A DNA stretch of 54,488 bases. Origin: an uncultured Candidatus Saccharibacteria bacterium. Its GTDB lineage: Bacteria > Patescibacteriota > Minisyncoccia > Phycocordibacterales > Zambryskibacteraceae. The stretch covers positions 1 to 54,488 of the forward strand of contig CAYIKP010000002.1 of the NCBI GenBank assembly GCA_964364225.1, read 5' to 3'. The translations under genes were made by a program, and so were the position numbers. Below are positions 226 through 14,944 of the stretch, in pieces (position 1 is the first letter of the stretch; each line of letters opens with the position of its first letter). The notes beneath the pieces are model-generated. The model saw only the letters and a list, made by a program, of their open reading frames with translations, searched no databases and was not told the DNA's origin.

Positions 226-972
226 ATGAAATTTAAGATTTTAATTTTAAGCCTTATATTAATTCCAAGTCTTGCTTATGCAGACTCTAGCTTTTTCTCC
301 TGGATAACTAACCTAAAAGTAGTTCCAGAATTAAGAAACAAACAAAAAATAATAAAAGAAATAAAAAAAGAAGCGGTCATTGAAATTGCGTCAACTAGCA
401 CACCAATTGCCACATCAACCGCTTATTTTTCTACAACCACAACAGCCACCACGACCTTCTCTCAAATAAAAGATAAGTTGGTTAATGCATCCAAAAATCT
501 GGTTCAAGATGTAAATTCTGAAGAATTATTAATTCAGATCACTAAATTAAAAGCTGAAAATGATGCTTTAAAAAGAACTGTATCTGGATTGCAACAAAAA
601 ATTATTACTCTTACAAACGAAAATAGTTCTTACATACAGAATATAGAGAAAATTAAACTTCAATCCACCCCTAAAGTATTGGCTAGAATAAAGGAGATAG
701 AATGGCTTATTAAGGGCCTTTTGGATAACAACTATAGAAATAAAATTGATGCAGAAGGTAATAAACAAGGCGAAATGGTTGTAAATATGGCATTTTTTAG
801 AAGTACTGGCGCAGATCAATTTAGAAGTTTGATAAAGGAATATGATGATCTAACAGGGACTTCGCTCGCTTTAAAATTTAAAGAAGTTGTTAATACCAGT
901 TCTTCACTGGAGCTGAAAAAGTTTGAAGAATTTTATTATTATTTTCTTTCTATAAGAAAATATCCGAAATAA
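226..972 (+). CDS. secreted coiled-coil protein, function unknown
   Basis: N-terminal signal-like peptide MKFKILILSLILIPSLAYA, a Thr/Ser-rich linker, then a heptad-like segment (LIQITKLKAENDALKRTVSGLQQKI). Followed by a terminator. Confidence 0.6.
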   Translation: MKFKILILSLILIPSLAYADSSFFSWITNLKVVPELRNKQKIIKEIKKEAVIEIASTSTPIATSTAYFSTTTTATTTFSQIKDKLVNASKNLVQDVNSEELLIQITKLKAENDALKRTVSGLQQKIITLTNENSSYIQNIEKIKLQSTPKVLARIKEIEWLIKGLLDNNYRNKIDAEGNKQGEMVVNMAFFRSTGADQFRSLIKEYDDLTGTSLALKFKEVVNTSSSLELKKFEEFYYYFLSIRKYPK

Positions 973-977
973 AAACA

Positions 978-1003
978 TAAAACTCCCCGAAAGGGGAGTT
1001 TTA
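978..1003 (+). terminator. intrinsic terminator
   Basis: aaaactcccc-gaaa-ggggagtttt directly after the 226..972 stop. Confidence 0.7.
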
Positions 1004-1039
1004 TGTTGAAGCGGGTCTTTCCGCTAAATCGAAGCGAGA

Positions 1040-1315
1040 TTACTTAACTGCGTCCTTTAATGCTTTTGCTGCTCTGAATTTTGGTACACGCATTGCTGGA
1101 ACAGAAATGGCAGCCCCTGTGCGTGGATTTCTTGCTTGTCTTGCAGCTCTAGTCTTCGTTGAGAAGATACCAAGGCCTGCAATTGAAACTTCGCCATTCT
1201 TTTTCAAAGTATTTACGATGCAGTCGATCATAGTTTCAACTGCTTGTTCGGAAGAAACTTTTGTTCCTCCAATCTTTGCGTGAACTTGTTCAACGATTGA
1301 TGCTTTATTCATCAT
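1040..1315 (-). CDS. hup: HU/IHF-family DNA-binding protein
   Basis: 91 aa. GLGIFSTKTRAARQARNPRTGAAISVPAMRVPKFRAAKALKDAV matches the HU beta-arm (RNPxTG) and C-terminus. Confidence 0.88.
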   Translation of the reverse strand: MMNKASIVEQVHAKIGGTKVSSEQAVETMIDCIVNTLKKNGEVSIAGLGIFSTKTRAARQARNPRTGAAISVPAMRVPKFRAAKALKDAVK

Positions 1316-1465
1316 TTTGTAATTTAACTTTTCTTATAAACGACCCGCTTTCCTAGTTTGTTTTACACAAACTAAAGATGCTCCAATTATAGACCTATCA
1401 AAAAAGACCGCAAGCAAGCCACATTTTGTAGTTAATGCTTGCCAAAATATGTATAATGTTTTCTA

Positions 1466-2995
1466 TTATCTAGCGAATTCTGTAATTCTAGTCTCTCTAA
1501 TGACAGTTACTTTTATTTCACCGGGGTATTTTAGGTCGTGCTCTATTTTCAAGGCTATATTTCTCGCCAAATCTTTCGCTTCCATATCTCCAATTGCTTC
1601 AGGGGATACAAAAACTCTTATTTCACGGCCAGCCTGTAGTGCATAGGCCTTTTCTACGCCGGTAAATTCTTGGGCTATTGCCTCTAATTCCCTTAATCTC
1701 TTTACATAGTTTTCAGCGGTGTCTCTTCTGGCCCCTGGTCGTCCGCCTGAAATCTGGTCCGCCACCTGCACAATTATTGATTCAATAGTTTCATATGGAT
1801 ATTCACCATGATGTGCCTGCATGGCCTTTACTATGTCTTCACTCACTCCAAATTTTTGCAGAATTCTTCTTCCTATTTCCACATGTGTGCCTTGAACCTC
1901 ATGATCCAATGCTTTGCCTATATCGTGAAGCAGGGCGCCTGTTTTTGCTACGTTTTCATCTGCGCCAAGCTCTTCCGCAAGCATTCTCGCGATGTGGGCC
2001 ATCTCTATAGAGTGTTGTAAAACATTTTGTCCGTAACTAGTGCGGAAGTGTAGGCGCCCAAGAACGGCTATTACTCTTTGATCAAGATTAAATACCCCAC
2101 ACTCATATGCAGCCTCCTCACCCTTTTGTTTAATTATTTGTTGAACTTCTAATTTGGCTTTTTCGACAACCTCTTCAATGCGCGCTGGTTGGATTCTGCC
2201 GTCTTTGATCAATTCTTCTAAAGCGACACGAGCTATTTGTCTGCGTACTGAGTCAAAAGAAGATAGGGTAATGGTTCCAGGGGTATCGTCAACGATTACC
2301 TCCACACCCGTTGCCCTTTCAAATGTTTTTATATTTCTTCCTTCTTTTCCAATAATTTTTCCTTTTATTTCTTCAGATGGAATAGGAACTGATGTTGTCA
2401 TTAATTCTGCCGGCACATCTGTTGCTAAACGCTGAATAGATGTAGCCAAAATCTCTTTTGCCCTACTCTCAAGCCTTTCACTGCCCTCCATTTCGAGCTT
2501 CCGTAGCCTTACTTCTATATCGCTTTCTGCATTTTTTTCTGCAATTTTTAAAACCTCTAATTTTGCCTCCTCTTTGCTTAAGCCAGATATTTTTTGTAGC
2601 TTGTCATGTCTTTCAGACAATAAAATATCCGTTTTTTCTTTAAGAATATCAATTTCTTTTATTTTTTCTTTAATATTTTCACTTTCAGAATCTAAGTCTG
2701 TTTGCCTGTTATCCAAAAATTCTTCACGCTTTAAAAGACGCTCTTCTAATTTGAGCGTTTTTTCTTCTTTTTCTTTTATTTCTTTTCTCGCAGTCTCTAA
2801 AATCTCTTCAGCTGTTTTTTCTGCCTCCGTTCTTACGCGAGATGCCTCTTCTTGGGCCTCAAGCATTTTTTGCTTGATATCAAGCTCCACTGAACCACGA
2901 CGGCCAAGAGAGATAATCCATCTCAAAAAATAACCAAAAGCAATACCAGCTGCAGCAGAAAGTGCTACAGCGAGAAGTACTAATCGTAATGACAT
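1466..2995 (-). CDS. rny: ribonuclease Y
   Basis: N-terminal TM helix, long coiled coil, KH domain (GKIIGKEGRNIKTFE) and HD domain (LLHDIGKA...HH). Confidence 0.92.
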   Translation of the reverse strand: MSLRLVLLAVALSAAAGIAFGYFLRWIISLGRRGSVELDIKQKMLEAQEEASRVRTEAEKTAEEILETARKEIKEKEEKTLKLEERLLKREEFLDNRQTDLDSESENIKEKIKEIDILKEKTDILLSERHDKLQKISGLSKEEAKLEVLKIAEKNAESDIEVRLRKLEMEGSERLESRAKEILATSIQRLATDVPAELMTTSVPIPSEEIKGKIIGKEGRNIKTFERATGVEVIVDDTPGTITLSSFDSVRRQIARVALEELIKDGRIQPARIEEVVEKAKLEVQQIIKQKGEEAAYECGVFNLDQRVIAVLGRLHFRTSYGQNVLQHSIEMAHIARMLAEELGADENVAKTGALLHDIGKALDHEVQGTHVEIGRRILQKFGVSEDIVKAMQAHHGEYPYETIESIIVQVADQISGGRPGARRDTAENYVKRLRELEAIAQEFTGVEKAYALQAGREIRVFVSPEAIGDMEAKDLARNIALKIEHDLKYPGEIKVTVIRETRITEFAR

Positions 2996-3114
2996 AATTT
3001 AATTTTTAGGGGATTTTTTGGCCTGACTTCCGTTACTTTCGTTCTGATTTTCAGCTTTTTAAGGGAACTTTTACACTCTACTCTTATTTATAAAGAGAGT
3101 CAAATTTAACCAAC

Positions 3115-3699
3115 TTACTTGTTTTTACCAGTAAAAACTTTGTCTATTATTCCGTATTTAACACCTTCTTCAGCATCCATAAAGAAATCACGATCAACAT
3201 CCTTTTCTATTTTTGATAGAGGTTGGCCAGTATTTTTTGAAAGGATTTTATTCATTGTTTCTCGATTTTTTACAATGCGCTTTGCACTTATTTCAATGTC
3301 TGATGCTTGTCCTTCTACTCCACCAAGTGGTTGATGAATCATTATTTCTGCGTTTGTTAAAGCAAATCTTTTTCCTTTTGCTCCGGCAGACAAAATTATT
3401 GCTCCCATTGATGCAGCGATACCAACTGCCACAGTAGATACGTTTGGCTTTATGTGGTTCATGGTGTCTAAAATTGCAAGACCTGCCGTCACGGAACCTC
3501 CTGGGGAATTTATATAAAGGGAAATATCTTTTTTAGGATCTTCTGATTCCAAAAACAATAGTTGGGCAATTATAAGATTGGCAACATGGTCGTCTATTGG
3601 GCCACCAAGAAAAATAATCCTTTCTTTTAAAAGTCGTGAATAAATATCGTAGGCGCGCTCGCCTTGGGGCACTTTTTCTATGACAGTTGGTATAAGCAT
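3115..3699 (-). CDS. clpP: ATP-dependent Clp protease proteolytic subunit
   Basis: 194 aa with [24 protein letters not shown], the active-site context GIAASMGA and MIHQPLGG. Confidence 0.93.
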
Positions 3700-3767
3700 G
3701 TCGGTAGTTTACTCAATCAAACAAATTTTGCAAAATTACCAAGACTTCGCGTATAGTTATTAAGCAT

Positions 3768-4466
3768 ATGAAATTTCACCGATTTTTCGTAAAAGATTCC
3801 CTTGCGGGAGCAAAACACATCCTTATAAAAGATGCGGATTTAATTCATCAAGTAAGAAATGTTTTGCGTATGACGGTAGGCGGTCAAATTGTTCTTTTGG
3901 ATGGCACGGGGCGTGAATATACGGCCTTTATCACTGATATAAATTTCAGAGGCATTACTTGTGACATTTTGAAATCTGTAAAAAGTTCCACTCTTCCTCG
4001 TCGCGAAATTACTCTCGCATTTTCTTTGATAAAAAAAGACAAAATGGAGTGGGTATTGCAAAAGGGGACCGAGCTCGGTGTTACACGCTTTCTTCCATTT
4101 ATTTCTGATAGATCAGAGAAGAAAGGCTTTAATAGAGAAAGATCGTTAGCAATTGTAAAAGAGGCGGTAGAGCAGTCTCAAAGAGCGTCAGTCCCTGTTG
4201 TGCGTGAGCCAGTTTCATTTGAAGAAATATTTTTTGAATGTAGAGGAATGGATATTTTTCTTTTTAATCCAAAAGGTCAGGAGGTTTCAACTGAAACAAG
4301 GGAAGGGGAGACCAGTGCGTGTTTAGTGGTGGGGCCAGAGGGCGGTTTCACAGACCAAGAAATTTTCATTGCAAAAAAACAGGGCGCACACATTTCATCG
4401 TTGGGCTCTGGAGTTTTGCGCGCAGAAACTGCAGCGGTTGTCGCCTCAACGATTTTTTTGGTATGA
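3768..4466 (+). CDS. rsmE: 16S rRNA (uracil1498-N3)-methyltransferase
   Basis: 232 aa. MKFHRFFV start, LIKKDKMEWVLQKGTELGV and the C-terminal GPEGGF...LGSGVLRAETA SPOUT motifs. Confidence 0.82.
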   Translation: MKFHRFFVKDSLAGAKHILIKDADLIHQVRNVLRMTVGGQIVLLDGTGREYTAFITDINFRGITCDILKSVKSSTLPRREITLAFSLIKKDKMEWVLQKGTELGVTRFLPFISDRSEKKGFNRERSLAIVKEAVEQSQRASVPVVREPVSFEEIFFECRGMDIFLFNPKGQEVSTETREGETSACLVVGPEGGFTDQEIFIAKKQGAHISSLGSGVLRAETAAVVASTIFLV

Positions 4467-4534
4467 CTTGCTAAATTTTATTTAGCGCGTTTAATACTCC
4501 GAAGATGTACATTCCCACTTTCCTTGAGGTTTAA

Positions 4535-4801
4535 ATGCGAATGGTTTCCACAGCGAAGTATCGGGCCGGAGAGGATATTGGCACTTGGGTCCGCGCAGTC
4601 ATCGTAAATGAGCTTGCGATTGAGGAGGGGGTATTAAAACCCGACGCTCGATTTGGACACGAAATCAACTCCGACAGTCTGGATTTGATTGAGCTTGAGC
4701 TTGAGAGGGTCTTCGACATCTGCATCTCTGATGATGATATCGATGGAATTAGAACGGTCCAAGACATGGTTTGGTATGTGGAAGGCAGACTTCCACACTA
4801 G
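4535..4801 (+). CDS. acyl-carrier-protein-like small protein (orphan)
   Basis: 88 aa. ELAIEEGVLKPDARFGHEINSDSLDLIELELERVFDICISDDDIDGIRTVQDMVWYVE matches the ACP helix II DSLD motif. GC is visibly higher than the flanks and the gene has its own terminator. Confidence 0.55.
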   Translation: MRMVSTAKYRAGEDIGTWVRAVIVNELAIEEGVLKPDARFGHEINSDSLDLIELELERVFDICISDDDIDGIRTVQDMVWYVEGRLPH

Positions 4802-4822
4802 GGGCCGGGTTTAGTTATTTAG

Positions 4823-4858
4823 AAACCGCGCGACATTTCTGTCGCGCGGTTTGTTTTT
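4823..4858 (+). terminator. intrinsic terminator
   Basis: aaaccgcgcgac-atttct-gtcgcgcggttt followed by gttttt. Confidence 0.75.
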
Positions 4859-4911
4859 ATTTTTGTTTTTCTAAGAATTCAAATAGGCCAAGTTAGACGC
4901 CGTTATGGCAC

Positions 4912-4940
4912 TTGACAAACCATGTGATAGGGTGTATACT
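4912..4940 (+). promoter_or_regulatory. near-consensus sigma70-type promoter upstream of the DGR target gene
   Basis: TTGACA (4912-4917), 17-nt spacer, TATACT (4935-4940). Confidence 0.55.
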
Positions 4941-4973
4941 AAAAAGAGTTAAGTCCTTTAAGAAAACCACCAC

Positions 4974-5026
4974 TTCGCCATAGCTTTTAGCACTCCATTT
5001 CTTGGAGAATTAAAAGCTATGGCGAA
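4974..5026 (+). promoter_or_regulatory. 16-bp perfect stem-loop in the 5' UTR of the DGR target gene
   Basis: ttcgccatagctttta (4974-4989) pairs with taaaagctatggcgaa (5011-5026). The loop carries ctcc..ggag. A second ctcc-tattt-ggag hairpin overlaps the GGAG just upstream of the ATG at 5077. Confidence 0.6.
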
Positions 5027-5076
5027 ACACACTCGGTGTTAGTCCTCTAGCAGGCTCCTATTTGGAGAAATAGACC

Positions 5077-5736
5077 ATGTCCACAAAAGACATGCTCGGT
5101 CCGCTTCCGCGGGCACTCGTCGGTGTGCCGAACAATCGGCAAGGTATCATCCTCGACATCGCCAACCGTCTCAACACGGATAGCGAATCGGGTGAAGTAT
5201 TCCACGGAGACCTCGCGAAGTTCGTGCGGTCGTGGAAGAAGACAGCGACCACGAAGCCCCGCATCCTCTCCCTCATCTCGGCTGGGCAGTCAATCGAGAT
5301 TGGTGAGATGGACGGCAGGGAGACGCTCGCCAAGGCGAAGGACGTCTTCACTGGCTACGTTGACCCAGATTTCAAAAACTACTGGGGACTCGACGTCGCT
5401 GGCAAGGCGACTGCGAAGACGCAAGTCGAGGTTCACGAGATGGTTGGCGATGCAGATTTCAATGGCATCTTCAACAGTCTCGAGCGTCCTCTCGACGAGC
5501 TTTGCTTGACGCAGGCACAGATCAAGCGCTTCGCTCGCGACAACCGCAACTGGTTGCGCACGGACGGCTTTGCCACAGTCTTCCTGTTCAAGGAAAACGG
5601 CGAATTCTTCGTCGCGCGCGTGGACGTCAGCGGCGGCCGGCTTAGGGTGTTCGTGCGCCGGTTCGAGGACGACGATGTCTGGAGTGCCGAGAGTCGTCTT
5701 CGTGTGGTGGTTCCGCAACAGACGCTTGGGGTCTAG
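5077..5736 (+). CDS. DGR target (variable) protein, 219 aa, no recognisable family
   Basis: The C-terminal 40 codons are the VR. A sample line hand-counts to about 62% GC against AT-rich flanks. GGAG lies 9 nt upstream of the ATG. No signal peptide or TM segment is visible. Confidence 0.85.
   Translation: MSTKDMLGPLPRALVGVPNNRQGIILDIANRLNTDSESGEVFHGDLAKFVRSWKKTATTKPRILSLISAGQSIEIGEMDGRETLAKAKDVFTGYVDPDFKNYWGLDVAGKATAKTQVEVHEMVGDADFNGIFNSLERPLDELCLTQAQIKRFARDNRNWLRTDGFATVFLFKENGEFFVARVDVSGGRLRVFVRRFEDDDVWSAESRLRVVVPQQTLGV
5600..5719 (+). repeat. DGR variable repeat (VR)
   Basis: Ungapped match to 6029-6148 (offset 429). It differs at 21 positions, 20 of which are adenines in the TR. It ends in the shared A-free 16-mer tcgtgtggtggttccg. 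Confidence 0.88.
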
Positions 5737-5766
5737 TACTCTTGACCCTTGGGTGCCCTGGCACTT

Positions 5767-5793
5767 GGGCCCTCGGAGAAATTCCGGGGGCCC
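5767..5793 (+). terminator. GC-rich stem-loop downstream of VR (terminator and/or homing-associated hairpin)
   Basis: gggccctcgga-gaaat-tccgggggccc (11 bp with one G:T), 31 nt after the target stop and 48 nt after the VR end. Only a weak T-run follows. Confidence 0.5.
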
Positions 5794-6028
5794 AATTCAT
5801 TTGTATAATAAATATGTGTTCATAAGAATGCTTCGGCTAAGGCTTGAGCGACGTGAATACATGAAGATATTTTTGAGAGTTTCGTCGGGTATGCCTTGCG
5901 AAAGAGTGGAAATATTTTTCATAACAAAAAATAATTTAGTTGGTGTTGTATGTTGGTGGACTTATATGTCCCAAGTGAGATTCAATCCTGAGACTATTCG
6001 AAGGATGGTGGTATGGATGGCATACAAC

Positions 6029-6148
6029 ACAAAATCTTCGTCGCGAACGTGAACGTCAACGACGGCCAGCTCAAGGTGAACGTGAACCGGTTCGAGAACG
6101 ACAATGTCTGGAATGCCGAGAATCGTCATCGTGTGGTGGTTCCGAAAC
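6029..6148 (+). repeat. DGR template repeat (TR)
   Basis: Read in the target frame it has six AAC and three AAT codons (..ANVNVNDGQLKVNVNRFENDNVWNAENRH..). It lies in a decayed, start-less copy of the target 3' end (open frame about 5992-6189). Confidence 0.88.
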
Positions 6149-6159
6149 TAAGGCTATTT

Positions 6160-6185
6160 CTCCCGCTATTTTGGCGGGAGTTTTG
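6160..6185 (+). terminator. hairpin plus T-run immediately after TR
   Basis: ctcccgc-tattttg-gcgggag then ttttgc. The avd-like stop codon (6166-6168, minus strand) overlaps the 3' end of the 5' stem arm and the start of the loop. Confidence 0.5.
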
Positions 6186-6547
6186 CTAGAAGACCTTTTT
6201 TCCATCCACCAAGCTGTCTGCCAATTTCTCCAAGCTGTATTAAAAAGGAGGAGTATTTTTCTGTTGGTATGAGTTTATTTTCCCACGCAAGTTGGCTAAA
6301 AAATTTTAATATATCGAGTTTAGTTATTGCTTTGTTGAGTAAAGGAATTTTATGCTCTAGTGATAAATAGCTTAGGCAAAACGTGAGTTCTAGTGTTTCA
6401 ATAAATGTTTGTTCGATTTTATTTCCAATTCCGAAACGTTCAACTTTCGGAAAATCACGATGTAAAGCTAGCCAGACCTGATATGTTTCTTTTATTTTGA
6501 GAATTACCTGTGGTAATTCTCGGGGGGGGGGTAGTATTTTGATACAT
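6166..6547 (-). CDS. avd: Avd-like four-helix-bundle accessory protein; frame lacks a start codon unless the C10 tract shifts
   Basis: The minus frame is open from 6552 to 6166. The product (..LPQVILKIKETYQVWLALHRDFPKVERFGIGNKIEQTFIETLEL..LDILKFFSQLAWENKLIPTEKY..LGEIGRQLGGWKKG) resembles Avd/23S-IVS four-helix-bundle proteins. No ATG, GTG or TTG occurs in frame. The ATG at 6547-6545 is out of frame by one nt across the homopolymer. Confidence 0.7.
6499..6531. repeat. 10-bp hairpin abutting a G10 homopolymer
   Basis: gagaattacc-tgt-ggtaattctc (6499-6521) followed by gggggggggg (6522-6531), in the avd/RT divergent region. Confidence 0.85.
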
Positions 6548-6560
6548 ATGTATCAAAATA
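6535..6560. repeat. 26-bp perfect palindrome containing both divergent ATGs
   Basis: tattttgatacat|atgtatcaaaata is centred on CATATG. The plus-strand ATG at 6548 starts the RT. The minus-strand ATG at 6547-6545 starts the short frame upstream of avd. Confidence 0.85.
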
Positions 6561-7522
6561 TCATATCAGTAGAAAACCTGCTTGTTTCGTGGAGGGAGTT
6601 CTTGCGTGGGAAAAGAAAGCGTGCAGATGTGGCGGAATTTTCTTTGAGATTTTCAGAAAATATACTCCTTTTGTATAAGGATTTAATGGATAAAACATAT
6701 AAGCACTCCTTTTATTCAGCCTTCAACGTTTCCGACCCAAAACCTAGAAATATACACAAGGCCAGTGTTCGAGATAGGCTTCTTCATCACGCAATATATA
6801 AAGTTTTGTATCCATATTTTGATAATAGATTCATTTACGATTCCTATTCGTGTAGGAATTTCAAAGGAACACACAAGGCAATGGAGAGATTTAAACAATT
6901 TGGATATACAGTCTCAAAAAATAATACAAAAACTTGTTGGATTTTGAAGTGTGATGTTAAAAAATTCTTTGCTTCAGTCGACCAAAAAATACTCATTGAA
7001 ATTTTAAAGAGACATATTAAAGATGAAGATACAATTTGGCTTCTTGAGAAAGTAATAAACAGTTTTAACTCAGGAATAGCTGGAAAGGGTCTACCTCTTG
7101 GAAATTTGACCTCACAGCTTTTGGTAAATATCTATATGAATGAATTTGACCAATATGTTAAACATAAACTCAAAGTTAAATACTACATAAGATACGCAGA
7201 TGATTTTTTAATACTTCACCTAGATAAACAATATCTAACCGCTAATTTACGATATATAGCAAATTATCTAAATCAAGAATTAAAACTTCAATTACATCCA
7301 AACAAGGTGTTTATAAAAACCCTATCTTCAGGAATTGATTTCTTAGGTTAGGTTCACTTTCCGAATCATCGAGTTTTAAGGACATCAACCAAACGGAAAA
7401 TGATACGAGAGCTAATGGAGACAGATAACAACTCTGAAACAATGCAGTCCTATTTAGGAATGCTTAGGCATGGAAATACTCACAAGATAGAGCGCGATTT
7501 ATTCGATATGTCGAACAAATAA
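6548..7522 (+). CDS. DGR-type reverse transcriptase, interrupted by an in-frame TAG at 7349-7351
   Basis: Motifs PKPRNIHKASVRDRLLHHA, YSCRNFKGTH, LKCDVKKFF, GLPLGNLTSQLLVNIYMNEFD ((I/L)GxxxSQ) and IRYADDFLIL (YADD). GIDFLG-TAG-VHFPNHRVLR continues in frame to a TAA at 7520-7522. Confidence 0.88.
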
Positions 7523-7523
7523 G

Positions 7524-8564
7524 TTATTTTTGTTTTTCTAAAAACTCAAAGACAGAACGATTAGTGAAGATAGAGCGGACATATTCTTCTGCGCGCATTG
7601 GGTCTGCGTTAGTGTGAACTTTCATTATTTTTTCCACTTCAGATTTTATTTCTTCTGCGTTTGGTTCAAATTTTTCTTCGCGGGCGATTTTTGCCACAAT
7701 CATTTCCAGTTTTACTCTTTTTTCTGCATCGGGGCGTACATCTTTCAATATTTCTTCTTCTGTTTTTTTAATATTTCTTAAATATTCGTCCCATTTTATT
7801 CCTGCATTCCCCAGATCAAACTTAAGCCTTTCAAGAAGAGCGCGAGATTCCTCCACTACTAGCCCTTCTGGTATTTCACCATTTGTATCCGATATTAATT
7901 TTTCTGCAATTTCAGAACGTCTTTTATCTTTCACGCGCAAAGTTTTTTCCATCTTTATATTTTCACGAACATTTTCTTTAAGTTTTTCCAAACTATCAAA
8001 ATTGCCAACTTTTTTTGCAAACTCGTCATTTATTTCTGGATGTCCTTCGTTGCTGTGCCCCCCAGGACCTCCAGCTTTGCCTTCGGCATTCATTATCTGG
8101 TGTTGTAGGTTATGCAGTACAGTTTCTATTTCATCATCTTTTACGGTGTCGTCTGCTTTTTCTTCCTTTATCCCTCCTGCAATTTTTTTGTAATCAGGAA
8201 GGGTAATTTCGGGCATTGTTTCAACCTCTATTTCAAATTCCAAATCATTTTTAGGGGCGATTTTAGTAATACGAATTTTAGGTCTAGAAATAGGCATAAA
8301 TTTTTCTTCCGCAACAATTTCTGGATACGCATCTGCGATGGCTCTTTCGGCGCCCTCCTCAAGAATTGTGAGCTCTCCAACTTTTTCTACAAACATATCT
8401 CTTGGAACCTTTCCCTTTCTGAATCCCGGCAATTCTGCTTTCGTAAGCATTTCATCAAGGGCTATTTTTGATTTTTCTTCAAGGATTTTCCAATCAATAA
8501 CCGCGCTTATGGTAATGCGCATTCCGTCTTTTTTTGATGTGGCTTTTTTATATGTATTACTCAT
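7524..8564 (-). CDS. tig: trigger factor (short form)
   Basis: The N-terminal ribosome-binding motif LPGFRKGKVP is present. At 346 aa, no FKBP-type PPIase segment is apparent between the N- and C-terminal domains. Confidence 0.8.
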   Translation of the reverse strand: MSNTYKKATSKKDGMRITISAVIDWKILEEKSKIALDEMLTKAELPGFRKGKVPRDMFVEKVGELTILEEGAERAIADAYPEIVAEEKFMPISRPKIRITKIAPKNDLEFEIEVETMPEITLPDYKKIAGGIKEEKADDTVKDDEIETVLHNLQHQIMNAEGKAGGPGGHSNEGHPEINDEFAKKVGNFDSLEKLKENVRENIKMEKTLRVKDKRRSEIAEKLISDTNGEIPEGLVVEESRALLERLKFDLGNAGIKWDEYLRNIKKTEEEILKDVRPDAEKRVKLEMIVAKIAREEKFEPNAEEIKSEVEKIMKVHTNADPMRAEEYVRSIFTNRSVFEFLEKQK

Positions 8565-8600
8565 TGTCTTTAGGAGGATACTTTAGAGATATAATTTTTG

Positions 8601-8632
8601 CAACAAAAAATCCACGGCTAAGTGGATTTTTT
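8601..8632 (-). terminator. intrinsic terminator (bidirectional shape)
   Basis: aaaaaatccac-ggctaa-gtggatttttt downstream of the minus-strand CDS 8654..8926. Confidence 0.65.
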
Positions 8633-8653
8633 GTTGAGCACTACTCCAAACAA

Positions 8654-8926
8654 TTATTGAATTTGAAGTTCTGCGTCCAGAGAATTTAAGTCCGCATCTA
8701 CTGAAGTATCAGTAGAATTTAAGTCTGATTCAATAGCATTCACTTCTTGTACAGCGGCAGCATTGGTTTCTGCTGGAGTTTGATTGGCTGTTCTCTTGCC
8801 CCAGAAGTAAACACCCCCCAGAACAATTATTGCGACTATTAGAATAATTCCAATAAGTGATCCTACTGAGCCTCCTTCTGTTGGTTCGTTTTGCATCATA
8901 GCGTTGTTGTAATTAGGTGTATACAT
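8654..8926 (-). CDS. small single-pass membrane protein
   Basis: 90 aa with one hydrophobic helix (SLIGIILIVAIIVLGGVYFW) and an acidic C-terminal tail. Confidence 0.5.
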   Translation of the reverse strand: MYTPNYNNAMMQNEPTEGGSVGSLIGIILIVAIIVLGGVYFWGKRTANQTPAETNAAAVQEVNAIESDLNSTDTSVDADLNSLDAELQIQ

Positions 8927-8942
8927 TTTTAATGTCTATTAA

Positions 8943-9740
8943 TTATGGAGTTGTGGTTGTGGCTGTTGTTCCGGTTTCTGTTTTGTCTGTTGCTGGCGTA
9001 ATTATTGGCCCAAGACCTTTAACATTACCGATTGCCTTTGAAAGGTCATCTCTAGCGGCCTTCAAATTCAACCCTATTTCTTTTAGGGCTATCTTTAATT
9101 GAACTAGGCCCTCTGATAGTTTTTCTGCTGTCATGCTGTCTGTTTGGACTGCTGGTAGTTTTGCGATACCGTCTTTTGCTAACTGAATTTTTGCCTTGGC
9201 ATCAGCAATAAATCCTTCCGCTGTTGTTGTGTTTTTTTCGGCTGCTTTTAATACAGCGACTCTTTCTTCTATTCTTTTAGAAACTCCCTCAAGCTTTGAA
9301 ATGCTTTCATTCAAGCGCTCCACGGCCTTTCCAGCAATTTTTCCTAAGCGACTCTCAAGATCTTTTCTTTTTTCATCCCTTTTTTCCCCCTTTATCTTTT
9401 GAAATTCGATCTTTCTTTCTGCCTTTAGGGCCTCTATTTCGTTTTTCTTATTTTCTTTCAATGCCTCAATTTCATTTTTTTTACCCTCCCTTAGGGCATC
9501 CAATTCATTTTTCTTGGTTTCTCGTAAAACCTCAGCTTTATTTTTGGCGGACTCTCTTTCATTTTCAATGTTTTGTTTTACCGCTTCGGCACGCTCCTTA
9601 ATGAGTTGCTTTGTGTTTTCGATTGCTGTTTTTTGGGTGTTAGTAGTTGTATTTTCTTCTGCAAACACAGTAGCAGAGAACATTAGCGATAGCGCCAACC
9701 CTAATACCAATCCAGAAATATTTTTTAGTGTCCTATTCAT
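8943..9740 (-). CDS. secreted coiled-coil repeat protein
   Basis: Signal-like N-terminus (LVLGLALSLMFSATVFA), K/E-rich coiled coil and a T-rich C-terminus. Confidence 0.6.
   Translation of the reverse strand: MNRTLKNISGLVLGLALSLMFSATVFAEENTTTNTQKTAIENTKQLIKERAEAVKQNIENERESAKNKAEVLRETKKNELDALREGKKNEIEALKENKKNEIEALKAERKIEFQKIKGEKRDEKRKDLESRLGKIAGKAVERLNESISKLEGVSKRIEERVAVLKAAEKNTTTAEGFIADAKAKIQLAKDGIAKLPAVQTDSMTAEKLSEGLVQLKIALKEIGLNLKAARDDLSKAIGNVKGLGPIITPATDKTETGTTATTTTP
9417..9515 (-). repeat. three tandem ~33-nt (11-codon) repeats inside CDS 8943..9740
   Basis: The protein reads KKNELDALREG-KKNEIEALKEN-KKNEIEALKAE. Confidence 0.7.
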
Positions 9741-9823
9741 TATTTAGTTATTAATTTTTAAACCAAGCCAATCAAGGGTTTGGTAGCACTATTATATATC
9801 TCTTTCTACTTATTTTTTCAACC

Positions 9824-9857
9824 ACAAAAAAACGCCCATTTTTGGGCGTTTTTTTGT
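9824..9857 (-). terminator. intrinsic terminator (bidirectional shape)
   Basis: aaaaaaacgccc-attttt-gggcgttttttt downstream of 9880..10077. Confidence 0.65.
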
Positions 9858-9879
9858 TTTTTCTTATATGTGAAAAATT

Positions 9880-10077
9880 TTATTGAGCTACTGGTGCTGT
9901 TACTGGGGCCTCTGCAGGTGTTGCAGGGGCTGTCTCTGTAACTGCTGTGGCCGCAGCAGTGTTATCTACTGGAGCGGATGTTCCTTTTGTCCAGTTCCAG
10001 ATTGCCCAGATAACGATAATAACAACCACTGCTATAACGATATTTGTTGTTGTAGAACCTTTTTTGTTGCTAAGCAT
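9880..10077 (-). CDS. small membrane protein
   Basis: 65 aa with one TM helix (NIVIAVVVIIVIWAIWNW) and an A/T/P-rich tail. Confidence 0.45.
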   Translation of the reverse strand: MLSNKKGSTTTNIVIAVVVIIVIWAIWNWTKGTSAPVDNTAAATAVTETAPATPAEAPVTAPVAQ

Positions 10078-10170
10078 GCTTTTTAACTTTTTATTTCTTA
10101 TAAATTAGAACTAACTCTAGTATATATTTTTTTTGTTTCTCAAGCTAAGATTTTGTACACAAACCAGCCC

Positions 10171-10695
10171 TTATTTGGGGTATTTTTCAAAATATAGCCT
10201 TAATCCACCCTCAAAAACGTCTTCAGCCTCTTTTTTGCTCTTATGTCCAGAAACTACCACTACTTTTTCTTGCAAATCTTTATATGTTTCAAAAAAATGT
10301 TGTATTTCTTTTAAGGTATGTTCGTTAACGTCTTCTATGTCTTTGACGTTATTAAACCGCGGGTCTTCTTTGGGTACTGCGATTATTTTGTCATCCCTAT
10401 CTCCGTGGTCAACAATATGCATTAGGCCCACAGGACGTACCTTAACGAGTATTCCAGGTGCAAATGGATAGGTGGAAAGGATTACAACATCTACAGCGTC
10501 TCCGTCGTGCCATAGTGTCTGTGGAACAAAGCCATAATCAAACGGGTAATCTTGACCGGTGTGCATCACTCTATCCAAAGCAATTAATCCGGTTTTTTTA
10601 TCTATTTCGTATTTATTCTTAGAGCCCTTTGGAATTTCGACAATTACGTTTATTGCCTCTTTTGTTCCAGGTTCTATTTCGTGCCACAGATTCAT
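10171..10695 (-). CDS. ppa: inorganic pyrophosphatase
   Basis: 174 aa with KYEIDKKTG, DYPFDYGFVPQT, DGDAVDVV and DDKIIAV motifs. Confidence 0.92.
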   Translation of the reverse strand: MNLWHEIEPGTKEAINVIVEIPKGSKNKYEIDKKTGLIALDRVMHTGQDYPFDYGFVPQTLWHDGDAVDVVILSTYPFAPGILVKVRPVGLMHIVDHGDRDDKIIAVPKEDPRFNNVKDIEDVNEHTLKEIQHFFETYKDLQEKVVVVSGHKSKKEAEDVFEGGLRLYFEKYPK

Positions 10696-10726
10696 TTAAG
10701 TTTGGTAGTGAATAAGGAATAATGGA

Positions 10727-11971
10727 TTATGATTCGGGTTTAATTTCAGGCACTTCCTCTATAACAGGAACTTCTGATTTTTCTTCAGTTTTTATTTCTT
10801 CTACTGGAGATTCTGTAATCACTTCTGCCTTTACAGAATTAGCCTCAGCATGGGCCAATTCTTTACCTTGCATTGATTTGATATCGATTTTCCAACCAGT
10901 AAGTTTTGCCGCGAGTCTAACATTTTGACCGCCACGACCAATGGCTAAAGATTGTTGATCTTCAGAAACCTCGACTGTTGCACTTTGGTTTGCCTCATCT
11001 ACAACAACCTCCATTACTTTTGCGGGGGAGAGAGAGTCTTCAATAAATGTTTTTGGGTCTTGAGACCATTCGATAATATCTATTTTTTCTCCGCCCAATT
11101 CAGACATAACAGTGGACACGCGCACTCCACGCTGACCAACAAGAGAACCAACGGGATCTACATGAGAATCGTCGGAAAATGCCGCGATCTTTGTACGAGA
11201 ACCAGCCTCACGAGCAATTGCCTTTATCGCTACGGTTCCATTTTGTACCTCAGGAGATTCAAGTTTAAATAGTTCCTCAACAAATTTTGGATGGGCACGA
11301 GAAAGCCTCAAGAATACTCCACGAGGTGTTTCTTCCACTTTATATAAGTATGCACGCACCCTTTCGCCTTGGCTAAAATGTTCACCGGGTATTCTTTCAT
11401 CATAGGAAAGAAGTCCAGTTGCTCGTCCTAGGTCAATAAAGATGTTTCCACGCTCAATCCTTTGCACTGTTCCGGTGATAATTTGACCTTCACGTTTGCC
11501 AAATTCACCAACAACAGAAACCTTTTCTGCTTCACGAATCTTTTGCATTATTACTTGCTTTGCAGTTTGGGATGCAATGCGCCCGAAGTCTGCTTTCGCC
11601 TCTAGTGGGAAAATTATTTCGTCATCAATTTGTGCATCTTTTTTTATAAGACGCGCATCGTCTAGCATTATGTCGTGTTCGGTATTGAAGAGAACACGCA
11701 TTGATTCAGGACTATCAGTCCTTTCTATTGAAAGATCTTCCTCTGTCATAACAACACGAGTGTCATCAACCACTGTTTTTACTTGGAAAAAGTCTACTTT
11801 TCCAGAAGAAAGATCAAATTTTGCACGGATAATTTGCCCGCGCTTTCCAAATTCTTTTCTGTAAGCGGTGGCTAACGCAGCTTCTATTGCTTCAATGACC
11901 CTTTCTTTTGGAATACCTCTTGTTTCCTCAAGTTCTGCAAGTACTGAATTGATGACTTTTAGATCAAACAT
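10727..11971 (-). CDS. nusA: transcription termination/antitermination factor NusA
   Basis: N-terminal domain, S1 domain (GTVQRIERGNIFIDLG) and two KH domains (GQRGVRV, GRGGQNVRLA). Confidence 0.92.
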   Translation of the reverse strand: MFDLKVINSVLAELEETRGIPKERVIEAIEAALATAYRKEFGKRGQIIRAKFDLSSGKVDFFQVKTVVDDTRVVMTEEDLSIERTDSPESMRVLFNTEHDIMLDDARLIKKDAQIDDEIIFPLEAKADFGRIASQTAKQVIMQKIREAEKVSVVGEFGKREGQIITGTVQRIERGNIFIDLGRATGLLSYDERIPGEHFSQGERVRAYLYKVEETPRGVFLRLSRAHPKFVEELFKLESPEVQNGTVAIKAIAREAGSRTKIAAFSDDSHVDPVGSLVGQRGVRVSTVMSELGGEKIDIIEWSQDPKTFIEDSLSPAKVMEVVVDEANQSATVEVSEDQQSLAIGRGGQNVRLAAKLTGWKIDIKSMQGKELAHAEANSVKAEVITESPVEEIKTEEKSEVPVIEEVPEIKPES

Positions 11972-12126
11972 GTTGTTTATTTATTATCTTTTAACAATAA
12001 CGGCCCGCCTTTTTGAGGCGAACCGTTATCTTGTAATAGAGCAAGTCTACACCATAAAGCATTTTTTGGCAAGTTTGGCTATACAGAGCCAAACATTAAT
12101 CTAATGTTTGCTAGAATGATGTTTAG

Positions 12127-13887
12127 ATGCAATTAGACGAAAAAAAATTTAGTGAATTTGCCTTTGATTCTGGGCTAGTTTCCAAGATGGAACTTTTAAA
12201 AGCCCAAAAAGAGGCACAAAAAACGGGAACTGGCCTCGGGGAGGTTTTAATTAAGGACGGACTCATAACAGAGGATGACCTTAGACGTATAAACGCAAAC
12301 CTTTCTGGAGTACCATTTGTTGATTTAAAAAATAAAAACATAAGTTTAGAAATTTTACAGATAATCCCGGAACCAATATCAAGAAAACATAACATTATTG
12401 CTTTCGATAGAGATGAATTTTCTGTAGAAGTGGCACTTCTTCATATGGAAGATTTTTCTTCAATAGATTTTTTAGCCAAAGAATATAGACTCAAGTTTTT
12501 GCCAAGATTTACAGATAGGGAATCAATGAGAGAAGGACTTATTTCATATCAAAAGGGCCTTAAAAAAGATTTCGGAATAAAAATAGAAAAAGAGGCAGAA
12601 AAACTAGCAAAACATTTTAAATCTTTTGGAGACGATACTTCTGGCTCAGCAGACTTAAAGAAAATTGCTGAAGATAAGACAATTTCTCATCTAGTTGATT
12701 TATTTTTAAAACACGCGATATCTCAAGGCGCCGTTGATATTAATTTAGAGCCCCAAGAAGAAGAAACCCTTGTTAGGTATAGGATTGACGGTATTTTAAG
12801 AGAGGCTTTTTCGCTTCCTATAATAATTCATCCACTTATTGTTTTACGACTTAAGTTTCTAGCCGGACTAGATTTAGTAAGCAAATTACCCCAAGACGGC
12901 AGATTCAAAATGGAAACAGGGGACAGATCTTCAATAAAATCGTCTTTTAGGATTAACACTCTACCAACCTCTTTTGGAGAAAAAATGGTTTTAAGAATTA
13001 TTCAAGCGGGGGCACTTGGTTTCAATTTAGAAACACTAGGATTTTATGGTGATGGCCTTGAGGATTTGCACAGAGGCCTAAGGTCTCATTCGGGGCTCAT
13101 AGTTTCTTGTGGTTCTTCACAAACAGGAAAAACAACCACTTTATATACAATTCTTGATGTCTTAAATAAACCAAGCGTTTCTATTTCAACCATTGAGTCT
13201 CCAGTTGAATATCCAATGAGAAGAATTAATCAAACTGAAGTAAAAGAAGATCTAGGATTAACTTTTGTTGCCGGATTAAGGGCCATTCTTAAACAGGATC
13301 CAGATGTAGTGATGGTTGGAAATATTGAAAACAATGAAACCCTCAAACTTTCTATAAATGCATCCGCCTCTGGGAAATTAGTTCTCGTATCCATAAATAC
13401 AAGGACTCCAGATGAAGCGATAGAAAAAATTTTGAATATGGGAGTTGATTCCTTTTCTCTTGCTTCTTCACTCAAACTTTTAATAGGGCATTTTTTGGTA
13501 AAACATTTAAGTGAAGACAAGCAAGAGTATGTTCTTTCAGAAAAAGAGATATCTAAACTAAATAGAGTGGTCGACACTGAAAAAGTTTTAGAGAGGCTTA
13601 AATCAGAAAAAATAATTCCAAAAAATACTTCTTTGGAGAATCTAAAGTTTTTTAAACCTTCGGATGAAACAAAGGAGAATGCCTATACTGGCTTTACTGG
13701 GGTTTTTGAGGTCTTAAATGTTTCCGAGACAATTAAGGAGCTTATTCTTAAGGGCGGATCTCCCGAAGAAATAAGAAGTCAGGCTTTAAAAAATGGAATG
13801 TTTTCTTTTGCTGAAGACGCTTTATTTAAGGCCGTGCAAGGCCTTACCACAATTGAAGAGGTATTTAGGGCGTCATCCGAGATATAA
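12127..13887 (+). CDS. PilB/GspE-family type IV pilus / type II secretion ATPase homologue with degenerate catalytic boxes
   Basis: T2SSE N-terminal domain and Walker A GSSQTGKT. The Asp-box reads IESPVE, Walker B reads DPDVVMVGNIEN (usual GEIRD) and the His-box region reads SGKLVLVSINT (usual TGHLVLSTLHT). Confidence 0.8.
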   Translation: MQLDEKKFSEFAFDSGLVSKMELLKAQKEAQKTGTGLGEVLIKDGLITEDDLRRINANLSGVPFVDLKNKNISLEILQIIPEPISRKHNIIAFDRDEFSVEVALLHMEDFSSIDFLAKEYRLKFLPRFTDRESMREGLISYQKGLKKDFGIKIEKEAEKLAKHFKSFGDDTSGSADLKKIAEDKTISHLVDLFLKHAISQGAVDINLEPQEEETLVRYRIDGILREAFSLPIIIHPLIVLRLKFLAGLDLVSKLPQDGRFKMETGDRSSIKSSFRINTLPTSFGEKMVLRIIQAGALGFNLETLGFYGDGLEDLHRGLRSHSGLIVSCGSSQTGKTTTLYTILDVLNKPSVSISTIESPVEYPMRRINQTEVKEDLGLTFVAGLRAILKQDPDVVMVGNIENNETLKLSINASASGKLVLVSINTRTPDEAIEKILNMGVDSFSLASSLKLLIGHFLVKHLSEDKQEYVLSEKEISKLNRVVDTEKVLERLKSEKIIPKNTSLENLKFFKPSDETKENAYTGFTGVFEVLNVSETIKELILKGGSPEEIRSQALKNGMFSFAEDALFKAVQGLTTIEEVFRASSEI

Positions 13888-13894
13888 TCCTTTT

Positions 13895-14659
13895 ATGGCT
13901 TTTATTTTTGCTGGTAACTGGAAAATGAACCCCTCGTCTGCAAATGACGCAAAGAATTTATTTAATTCTTATAAAAAGATTTCTAAAAAGTTTATAAGGC
14001 GTGGGGTATCTGTGATTTTTGCTCCAGCCACCCCCCATATTGGTCTATTTTTTGGAACTAAATTTCCCAAAAATTTAAAAATGTCGGCCCAAGATACTTC
14101 TATAGAAAGCCAAGGCGCTTTCACGGGACGTATAAGTCCAGTACAGGTTTTTGGTTTGGGTGTTGATTACGTAATCCTTGGGCATTCAGAACAAAGAGAG
14201 TTTGGCGATACTAGTACGCTTATTTCACATAAAATTAAAAGCGCTTTAAAAGCAAAATTAAAACCAATTGTGTGTATAGGAGAGTTAAAGAGGGAACTTG
14301 ATGGAGAGTTTTGGCATGAACTTAAAAATCAAATAGAGGAAACAGTTTTTGGATTAACAAATAAAGACATAACAAACATTATTATTGCCTATGAGCCAGT
14401 ATGGGCCGTAGGGGAAACCTCAAGTGGCCCAATGAGCCCAGAGGACTTACACGAAACAGTTTTGTTTATAAGAAAAGTTTTTTCTAATTTATTTGGTGGA
14501 AAAATAAGTAAAAATTTACTAATTCTTTATGGTGGTTCAGTATTTTCCCACAATGCTAATGATTTATTTAGAATAGGAAATGTTTCTGGGTTTTTGGTTG
14601 GGCGTGAAAGTTTGAATAAGATTGAAGTAGAAAAAATTATCCAAGCGGCGCTTGGATAA
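13895..14659 (+). CDS. tpiA: triosephosphate isomerase
   Basis: MAFIFAGNWKMN start, ILGHSEQR, IAYEPVWAVGT-like and GGS motifs. The track ORF start at 13793 overlaps the upstream gene and is not conserved. Confidence 0.9.
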   Translation: MAFIFAGNWKMNPSSANDAKNLFNSYKKISKKFIRRGVSVIFAPATPHIGLFFGTKFPKNLKMSAQDTSIESQGAFTGRISPVQVFGLGVDYVILGHSEQREFGDTSTLISHKIKSALKAKLKPIVCIGELKRELDGEFWHELKNQIEETVFGLTNKDITNIIIAYEPVWAVGETSSGPMSPEDLHETVLFIRKVFSNLFGGKISKNLLILYGGSVFSHNANDLFRIGNVSGFLVGRESLNKIEVEKIIQAALG

Positions 14660-14671
14660 AATGAATCCCGT

Positions 14672-14944
14672 ATGAAATTACTTATGTTTTATACATACGT
14701 ATTACAGAGTAAAAGAGATGGAAAATATTACACTGGCTCCACAAGCAATTTACGGAAGCGCTTATGGGAGCATCAGAACGGAAAATCTTTGTATACAAAG
14801 GGTAGAGGACCATATAAACTTGTTTATTATGAAGCATGTGTTGATGAAAAAGATGCTAGGTCGAGGGAAACTTACCTTAAGTCAGGCACAGGTAAGCGTT
14901 ATTTGGCTTCGAGACTAAAGCGCTTCCTATTTCATTCGGGATGA
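14672..14944 (+). CDS. stand-alone GIY-YIG nuclease-domain protein
   Basis: FYTYVLQSKRDGKYYTGSTSNLRKRLWEHQNG...YYE...A..RE..LK. The stop overlaps the pgk ATG (ATGA). Confidence 0.8.
   Translation: MKLLMFYTYVLQSKRDGKYYTGSTSNLRKRLWEHQNGKSLYTKGRGPYKLVYYEACVDEKDARSRETYLKSGTGKRYLASRLKRFLFHSG

Follow-up and report, generated by a model that had tools for sequence, protein, structure and literature searches.

Diversity-generating retroelements (DGRs) are expected in genomes of the Patescibacteria, also called the candidate phyla radiation (CPR), where such elements are abundant and have already been surveyed. Wu et al. (2018; PMC5758913) described a set of CPR DGRs and a CPR-specific architecture, "B3," and Roux et al. 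(2021; PMC8144416) described a reverse transcriptase (RT) clade, clade 2, that is restricted to Patescibacteria. The accessory protein Avd occurs in ∼74% of DGRs (PMC5758913). In the prototype DGR, that of Bordetella phage BPP-1, components follow each other in the order mtd with its variable repeat (VR), avd, the template repeat (TR), and brt. Here, we analyzed a 54,488-nt stretch of DNA from an uncultured Candidatus Saccharibacteria bacterium (contig CAYIKP010000002.1; the whole stretch is referred to as the window), which contains between positions 5077 and 7522 a target gene ending in a VR, a TR, an avd gene on the opposite strand, and an RT gene (Table 1). With a probability of roughly 90%, this element is a chromosomal DGR of the architecture typical of Patescibacteria. 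It shares with the CPR DGRs of PMC5758913 and PMC8144416 the host group, the cellular chromosomal location, an arrangement of avd and TR that departs from the prototype, and a small target without recognizable domains, and nothing excludes its membership in that group. Its architecture would correspond to B3, an equation that we infer from the text of Wu et al. (PMC5758913), and its RT and host fit the Patescibacteria-restricted clade 2 of Roux et al. (PMC8144416).

The core observation is the TR/VR pair. A gap-free comparison of the two repeats over 120 nt showed 21 mismatches. Twenty of the 34 TR adenines were altered in the VR (13 to G, 4 to T, and 3 to C), whereas only 1 of the 86 non-adenine TR positions differed (C6072 versus T5643), and this adenine bias had a Fisher exact p of 8.6e-13. 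All 20 changes at adenines fell at codon position 1 or 2 in the frame of the coding sequence 5077..5736, and the C6072/T5643 change was synonymous, at a third codon position. The repeat coordinates and the counts of 21 mismatches, 20 of 34 adenines, and 1 of 86 other positions had been worked out by hand in an earlier reading of the same DNA (the original prediction), and the pairwise alignment found them exact to the base. An independent repeat search recovered the pair as 5603-5726 and 6032-6155. The 5′ boundary of the repeats is soft, with non-adenine mismatches starting upstream of 5600/6029. At their 3′ ends, both repeats carry the identical adenine-free 16-mer tcgtgtggtggttccg (5704-5719 and 6133-6148), and in the target frame the TR reads ANVNVNDGQLKVNVNRFENDNVWNAENRH, with nine AAC/AAT codons; the 16-mer and the number of these codons were both as predicted. 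By analogy with the initiation of mutagenic homing sites (IMH and IMH*) described in PMC5758913, the 3′ end of the VR is IMH-like: the identical GC-rich end is followed by partial divergence, and an inverted repeat, which is a feature of a minority of DGRs, is found past the VR at 5765-5795.

The same signature was found in related loci. A family scan using an 11-sequence target alignment and one genome per species gave 79 loci, nearly all of them titled Patescibacteria or unclassified uncultured bacteria. In 37 loci of the family, TR adenines were mismatched at 628 of 1,169 positions (54%), compared to 108 of 3,420 (3%) for the other bases. The order target (+), TR (+), avd (−), and RT (+) was kept in all 41 related loci that have a target, avd, and RT. 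Since avd is on the opposite strand in all related loci, an inversion of avd as a local rearrangement, for which a 26-nt palindrome at its start made the window a candidate, was ruled out. Two further observations concern the family as a whole. About 35 of the 79 loci had no RT or avd within 4.5 kb (e.g., L013, L014, L018, L021-L023, L026, and L028) and represent orphan or remote targets, and two target paralogues per locus were found in L023, L037, L052, and L070.

The RT and Avd provide the remaining evidence for the identity of the element. An RT with YADD and LGNLTSQ motifs had been predicted ∼400 nt past the TR and was found there, its ATG at 6548 lying 400 nt downstream, and the RVT_1 profile check gave a clear match (Table 1). 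Its best match in the PDB was 8ub7_A (E 2.8e-38, full length), a 328-aa chain named only "Reverse transcriptase," which we take to be the RT of the Bordetella phage DGR (bRT). Group II intron and "retron-type" RTs matched the window RT at ∼1e-18, which is ∼20 orders of magnitude weaker. Homologues of the RT, like those of the target, came from Patescibacteria MAGs. Judged by its motifs, the RT belongs to the DGR clade with the (I/L/V)GxxxSQ motif. The Avd-like open reading frame (ORF) expected between the TR and the RT was also present. The protein assembled from the minus strand matched the Pfam family bAvd (PF22296) at 9e-12, above the cut-off, and the NCBIfam model DivGenRetAVD (NF033474) at 2e-17, below its curated cut-off. 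Not reported in the original prediction were the minus-strand orientation of this ORF and its lack of an in-frame start; the ORF joins its ATG only when one C is removed from a run of 10 (C10), after which a 126-aa Avd can be translated.

It might be argued that the locus is not a DGR, the repeats being an ordinary gene-end duplication and the RT coming from a group II intron, a retron, or a defense system. For instance, NCBIfam has no DGR RT model, its best subthreshold match being a group II intron RT/maturase, and some homologues of the RT are named "retron-type" in databases. We find this hardly credible in view of the adenine specificity (p 9e-13 in the window, repeated in 37 loci), the wide margin by which the RT is nearest to 8ub7, the adjoining Avd homologue, and the Rfam scan, which found no group II intron or retron RNA in the window. 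Moreover, the differences between strains in the VR lie at TR adenines (13 of 14, with the 14th restoring the TR base). The identification of the element as a DGR thus stands on the adenine-specific repeat pair, the IMH-like end, the LGNLTSQ RT near 8ub7, and the Avd homologue.

Comparison with the BPP-1 element showed many likenesses: the full-length homology of the RT to 8ub7 (E 2.8e-38), the Avd family, A-to-N changes at codon positions 1 and 2, an AAC-rich TR, a GC-rich IMH-like end, and a GC-rich inverted repeat past the VR. However, several differences were apparent. First, avd of the window lies between the TR and the RT gene, on the opposite strand. Second, 12 nt separate the TR from a hairpin and a T-run, where the prototype TR runs on into the RT gene. 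Third, the target has no detectable C-type lectin fold in its predicted structure, and the element is chromosomal and not phage borne. Finally, in the window, avd contains a homopolymer and the RT gene is interrupted by a stop codon.

Evidence for recent activity came from a comparison of strains. A contig from the Hainich aquifer (sample H51; L001) was 99.68% identical to window positions 889-15341 (14.4 kb). Of the 35 substitutions between the two, 14 were in the VR, at 5623-5699. Thirteen of these were at TR-adenine positions, and at the 14th (5643) L001 has the TR base. The TRs of the two were identical. Because the VR differs at TR-adenine sites and the TR is the same, the VR has been rewritten between near-identical strains, which means that the element was recently active in the population. 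A third VR haplotype was found in the same 90% protein cluster; with it, the near-identical contigs of one aquifer carry three VR haplotypes that differ at TR-adenine positions, and the recent activity claimed in the original prediction was borne out. A contig search with the 267-aa RT fragment returned only the same three contigs of this locus. Elsewhere in the aligned region, tight clusters of substitutions relative to L001 at 12264-12315 (seven) and 15087-15189 (five), both in housekeeping-looking ORFs, may be recombination tracts.

A clean population-level case of DGR activity in another CPR lineage was found in Rifle groundwater. Ten contigs (L089-L098) had identical RTs and about six VR haplotypes, which differed within 95 nt (460-554). 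In this population, avd and its ATG lie in different frames. Eight of the 10 contigs have a run of 10 G's (G10) at the start of the gene; of the other two, one carries a T in place of a G within the run and the other an A in place of a T next to it.

The element had also been called complete, and in this respect the prediction failed: a premature TAG interrupts the RT gene at a Trp codon, and a G10 run separates the ATG of avd from a body in another frame. The TAG (7349-7351), which the prediction had not reported, takes the place of the Trp in FLGW, in an alignment column that is invariant Trp in 10 close homologues. Across 39 RT lineages, this codon (268) was TGG in 32, and M, L, and Q also occurred there. 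The TAG was common to all four assemblies that cover the site, and the RTs sharing it differed at two other sites. An alternative genetic code was ruled out, as TAG is an ordinary stop here: it closes the target and avd genes, and 16 of the window's 50 long ORFs also end in it. Just one further in-frame stop was found among the 39 lineages, a TGA in L071, a metagenome-assembled genome (MAG) unrelated to the window whose RT is 61% identical, and it occupies the very codon that holds TAG in the window. The chance of two independent nonsense events in one RT codon is ∼0.009. These two cases hint that a stop at codon 268 may be tolerated and leaky, and the simplest reading of the strain sequences is that diversification went on after the TAG arose.

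An alternative explanation is that the DGR was recently inactivated. The TAG and the avd frameshift would then be loss-of-function mutations and the VR would be frozen, with strain differences that predate the lesions and persist by recombination. A TAG that is a normal stop, in frame at a mostly conserved Trp codon, agrees with this explanation, as does an avd gene that is out of frame in all four assemblies. In addition, the window VR has one non-adenine change (T5643), as expected of a long-resident VR, and the TR, avd, and RT have been lost from a sister lineage (L086) that retained the target, showing that loss occurs here. However, we consider inactivation somewhat unlikely for three reasons. 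First, the avd "frameshift" is not lineage specific, since the run is present in 36 loci with intact avd bodies, including the diversifying Rifle population. Second, both strains share the TAG and differ by two other RT substitutions, yet they differ at 13 adenine sites of the VR. Third, the sole other nonsense codon falls on the same RT codon, a coincidence of low probability (∼0.009) at a position where M, L, and Q are tolerated.

Further analysis of avd showed that the break in its frame is a recurrent feature. In the 54 kb, where 0.007 G/C runs longer than 7 would be expected, the G10 at 6522-6531 is the sole example. A G7-G12 run (mode, 10) was present at the 5′ end of avd in 36 loci, the window included, and only eight other G/C runs of at least 8 were found in the 661 kb of those loci. 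An open ATG within 30 nt upstream of the run on the avd strand was found in 28 of the 36 loci, compared to 27% of control positions (p 4e-10), and the avd body was free of stops and frameshifts in 36 of 36. The body was in frame with this ATG in only about 10 of the 36 loci, which is no better than chance; about 10 loci needed no shift, 10 needed +1 nt, and 15 needed −1 nt. Where the frame is kept, translation gives M-x(2-9)-PPP-R, which leads on into Avd. A good example of the same arrangement with another repeat is provided by two other CPR DGRs, L087 and L088, which were reached through RT homologues and have different, larger targets. Here, the place of the G-run between the starts of avd and the RT gene is taken by (GA)10-11 (4015-4034 in L087 and about 2750-2770 in L088), and translation of L087 gave the order ATG, leader, (TC)n, and an avd body out of frame. 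As in phase-variable loci, a repeat in the 5′ coding region, either C7-C12 or (TC)10, thus stands between an enriched ATG and the avd body.

In the locus of the window, the run was G10 in the window and L005 and G11 in L001 and L006, all low-coverage contigs (4-11x), and neither length puts avd in frame. Two Logan contigs stop inside the run. A sequencing artifact was ruled out as a general explanation for the run, since it occupies the homologous site in 36 independent MAGs whose flanks are unique and since its length was reproduced in 10 assemblies. The run in the window is also abutted by a 10-bp hairpin (Table 1). Hairpins next to the run were found in ∼16 of the 36 loci, with differing stem sequences; the folding energies of the two strands were alike (p 0.68), and G-U pairs numbered 22 on the plus strand versus 4 on the minus strand. 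Because the run recurs at one site in 36 loci, the avd bodies are intact, and the Rifle VRs diversify, the sequences argue for conservation of the broken avd frame over decay. Slippage is the probable route to Avd, and it could take place in the DNA, during transcription, or on the ribosome, and the run may also affect the RT promoter.

A second conserved structure lies directly after the TR. Most related loci have a CTCYC...GRGAG hairpin with TTTT after it at this place. RNAalifold on 35 loci gave seven pairs; four showed compensatory changes, and U-G pairs were numerous on the plus strand. The hairpin of the window (6160..6184) is likely an intrinsic terminator or a 3′ structural element of the TR RNA, and we infer that this RNA would be a short transcript ending at the hairpin and U-run. 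If the TR RNA ends there, a separate promoter for the RT gene must lie in the tiny region that this gene has in common with avd. The starts of the two genes are unusually close in another respect. Owing to the palindrome at 6535-6560, both avd and the RT begin with MYQN, and there is zero intergenic space between these divergent genes; therefore, promoters would have to lie inside each other's coding regions, or the mRNAs would have to be leaderless. An Rfam scan of the window returned a tRNA fragment only, with no family over the leader hairpin of the target gene, the TR hairpin, or the run.

These features bear on an alternative role for the run, namely, that the G-run and hairpin act on the RT, as part of its promoter or leader or of a control region common to the two divergent genes. 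Transcription would then be tuned by run length, as it is for repeats located in promoters, and the avd frame would be solved otherwise, e.g., by a non-AUG start. Hexamers of the TAGTAT, TAGAAT, and TAAAAT types, resembling a −10 element (TAnnnT), occur straight after the run in many loci. The run ends 16 nt before the RT ATG, in an element whose terminator-like hairpin past the TR implies a separate RT promoter here, and the run-adjacent stems hold their G-U pairs mainly on the plus strand. Among the RT homologues with called N termini extended through the run, gene callers read it as GGG(G) in 15 of 31 and as (ER)n in three. However, no −35-like element was seen by eye at a workable distance in the window, and an open upstream ATG is strongly enriched on the avd strand (p 4e-10). 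Also against this role are the in-frame loci, which read through M-x(2-9)-PPP-R into Avd, and L087, in which (TC)n lies between the ATG and the avd body. We therefore regard a role on the RT in place of avd as unlikely, although the two roles are not mutually exclusive.

Two groups of known systems resemble slippage at the avd start. In Neisseria, Haemophilus, Campylobacter, and Bordetella, phase-variable genes have simple-sequence contingency loci, in which a homopolymer or a dinucleotide repeat lies in the promoter or in the 5′ part of the coding region. As in these loci, a G/C run of 8 to 12 or a (GA)10-11 repeat lies just past the start codon, where unit changes switch the frame. The repeat type varies between lineages at one position, and a length of 10 versus 11 was seen in near-identical low-coverage assemblies. 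However, the 10 Rifle assemblies agree on length (8 with G10 and 2 in which a single base within or next to the run is changed), and the gene gated here is the accessory factor of a mutator and not a surface antigen. The second group comprises frameshifted genes rescued by slippage, such as those with poly(A) tracts in insect endosymbionts, together with +1 frameshifting of tRNA-Pro on CCC-C. The likeness here is a gene body conserved in spite of a frame broken at a long homopolymer, in reduced genomes; in addition, the run encodes Pro-Pro-Pro, and in about half of the loci a predicted hairpin follows on the avd mRNA. The differences are that the run is C/G and not A/T and that the direction of the needed shift is not constant (∼10 in frame, 10 +1, and 15 −1).

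By analogy with known DGRs, the element may work as follows. The TR would be transcribed from the plus strand as a short RNA ending at the hairpin and U-run. The RT together with Avd would copy this RNA into cDNA, placing random nucleotides opposite A, and the cDNA would replace the VR, guided by the common GC-rich 3′ end. The nine AAC/AAT codons would thereby randomize one face of a predicted β-hairpin, together with the loop after it, in a small protein of cytoplasmic appearance. A throttle could be imposed if Avd were made only after slippage on the C-run, either in the DNA (phase variation), in transcription, or in translation (e.g., by +1 shifts on CCC-C), and in this lineage the RT would also need readthrough of a TAG at a tolerant position. 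Our tentative proposal, which we put at somewhat less than even odds, is that the conserved repeat at the start of avd in Patescibacteria is a stochastic throttle on hypermutation, with leaky RT stops as a possible second layer and the target as a possible new scaffold that is neither a lectin nor an immunoglobulin. The leads of most interest are the repeat and, after it, the stop codon that recurs and the target fold that has no match; all three are unproven.

Several points weigh against a working, throttled element. First, neither the RT nor avd is an intact ORF as sequenced, and TAG is an ordinary stop in this genome, so the element could be dead. Second, the difference between runs of 10 and 11 was seen among four assemblies of low coverage (4-11x) and could be assembly noise, and the constant run length in the 10 Rifle assemblies argues against fast phase variation at the DNA level. 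Third, the run could act on the RT promoter or leader instead. Fourth, the VR haplotypes could be older alleles brought in by recombination. Finally, the placement of the TR RNA end at the hairpin is read from the sequence only.

The possible interest of the throttle proposal lies in the control of DGR activity, which is poorly understood. The avd frame break recurs in dozens of species-level genomes with the body intact, and in one population, that of Rifle, the VR diversifies despite an out-of-frame consensus avd. If true, the proposal would give a simple, testable rule for keeping a self-mutator low or stochastic in tiny cells, and it would explain why gene callers misannotate the starts of avd and the RT gene in CPR genomes. 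The text of PMC8144416 and PMC5758913, as far as it was accessible, has no mention of a run at the avd start, a terminator-like hairpin after the TR, or GC-rich codon usage in the target, and the wider literature check was incomplete.

The target protein has a conserved C-terminal domain that matched no Pfam model and no fold. Neither Pfam nor NCBIfam gave a match to the target, and none of 32 family members had a match in Pfam; in particular, the CLec, FGE, and DUF1566 models gave no match at E of ≤1 in any of the 32. A profile of the family likewise found no match among PDB sequences. Homologues of the target numbered 43, and those with a source name were Patescibacteria MAGs, while a profile search with the domain (E of ≤1e-3) found 2,677 cluster representatives. 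Some proteins of the family hold two or three tandem copies of the ∼155-aa domain (P0169 and P0170). A structure predicted by AlphaFold (AF2) from the alignment had a predicted local distance difference test score (pLDDT) of 88 overall and of >94 from residue 62 on. A Foldseek search with this model found nothing at E of <0.001 in the PDB or BFVD, lectin-fold DGR proteins included. As modeled, the target does not belong to the C-type lectin fold (CLec/FGE-sulfatase-like). On two predicted antiparallel strands (residues 181/183/185 and 190/192/194), AAC codons are interleaved with invariant Val, and they continue into the next loop; therefore, one face of a predicted β-hairpin would be randomized. 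Several CPR VR classes without an assigned fold, including "UVR1-6," are listed by Wu et al. (PMC5758913). With ∼2,700 cluster representatives and neither a Pfam model nor a fold match, the family is a candidate for a new natural binding scaffold, as judged from the model.

The target gene also differs from its neighbors in composition. Its GC content at third codon positions (GC3) is 74%, compared to 30% for the RT gene and 28% for tig. This was also apparent across the family (L008-L085), where the mean GC content of targets was 51.5% versus 37 to 41% for RT, avd, and flanks, and GC3 outside the VR was 57% versus 38%. Adenine-specific depletion was not supported as the source of the high GC content, since A and T at third positions are both low, which means that GC3 is enriched. 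Upstream of the gene, the long leader hairpin sits between the promoter-like site at 4912-4940 and the ribosome-binding site and has no Rfam match. Downstream of the VR, the GC-rich hairpin at 5765..5795 could be the terminator of the target gene, an inverted repeat of the DGR type, or both. The positions of these and the other features are listed in Table 1.

Table 1. Positions in the window of the DGR components and of the repeats, hairpins, and signals around them
Feature	Position	Strand	Remarks
Left 27-nt direct repeat copy, ghost of tig 3′ end	4857..4883		93% identical to 7524-7550; minus strand encodes FEFLEKQK*
Promoter-like site of target gene, TTGACA-17 nt-TATACT	4912..4940	+	11/12 consensus matches, best of the region; consensus match only
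Long leader hairpin of target gene, 24-nt arms	4974..5026	+	Inverted repeat, 88% complementary; stem kept in L086
Target (variable protein) gene, 219 aa	5077..5736	+	ORF; conserved ∼155-aa C-terminal domain
VR	5600..5719	+	Target residues 175-214; gap-free alignment to TR
IMH-like VR 3′ end	5704..5730	+	A-free GC-rich 16-mer as in TR, then CAACAGACGC versus AAACTAAGGC in TR
GC-rich hairpin with T-rich tail, 3′ of VR	5765..5795	+	14-pair stem, terminator-like; kept in L086
TR	6029..6148	+	Same in near-identical contig L001 although VR differs
Hairpin CTCCCGC...GCGGGAG with TTTT	6160..6184	+	Terminator-like, 12 nt past TR; overlaps avd stop codon
avd	6166..6547	−	ATG 6547-6545 and five codons, C10 run, then Avd body in another frame
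10-bp hairpin abutting G-run	6499..6521	+	Mean minimum free energy of the loci at this spot −5.4 versus −2.9 kcal/mol in control windows, p 0.001
G10 homopolymer (C10 on avd strand)	6522..6531		avd codons 6-9; 16 nt upstream of RT ATG
Perfect 26-nt palindrome	6535..6560		avd ATG and RT ATG back to back (6547/6548)
DGR RT gene, 324 codons	6548..7522	+	RVT_1 1e-23; in-frame TAG 7349-7351 (codon 268, FLG-W)
Right 27-nt repeat copy, real tig 3′ end	7524..7550		tig 7524..8564, minus strand

The cassette is flanked by clpP, rsmE, a small ORF resembling an acyl carrier protein (ACP) gene (4535..4801), and the trigger factor gene tig. The original prediction placed the insertion between rsmE and tig. 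The tig side was supported by the 27-nt duplicate of the tig end, which the prediction had not reported, but the left neighbor is the ACP-like ORF and not rsmE. The two differences between the copies of the 27-nt repeat are both synonymous. In L086, the sister lineage mentioned above, whose target is 74% identical, the synteny clpP-rsmE-target...tig is kept and homology extends up to window position 5961, with no TR, avd, or RT at the locus. At its junction, a degenerate repeat of the tig end (3182-3209) was found between the orphan target and a gene for the toxin ParE, which has a small ORF upstream of it, presumably that of the antitoxin. Because the 27-nt duplicate flanks the cassette and a degenerate copy occurs in L086, the 3′ end of tig looks like a recurrent, att-like insertion site. 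The cassette itself contains no integrase. By this sequence comparison, the target of a DGR can outlive the rest of the element. The ACP-like ORF has a DSLD motif and matched NCBIfam acyl carrier protein models at 1e-17, below their cut-offs; its GC content (47 to 49%) is higher than that of its surroundings, and it is absent from the syntenic locus of L086.

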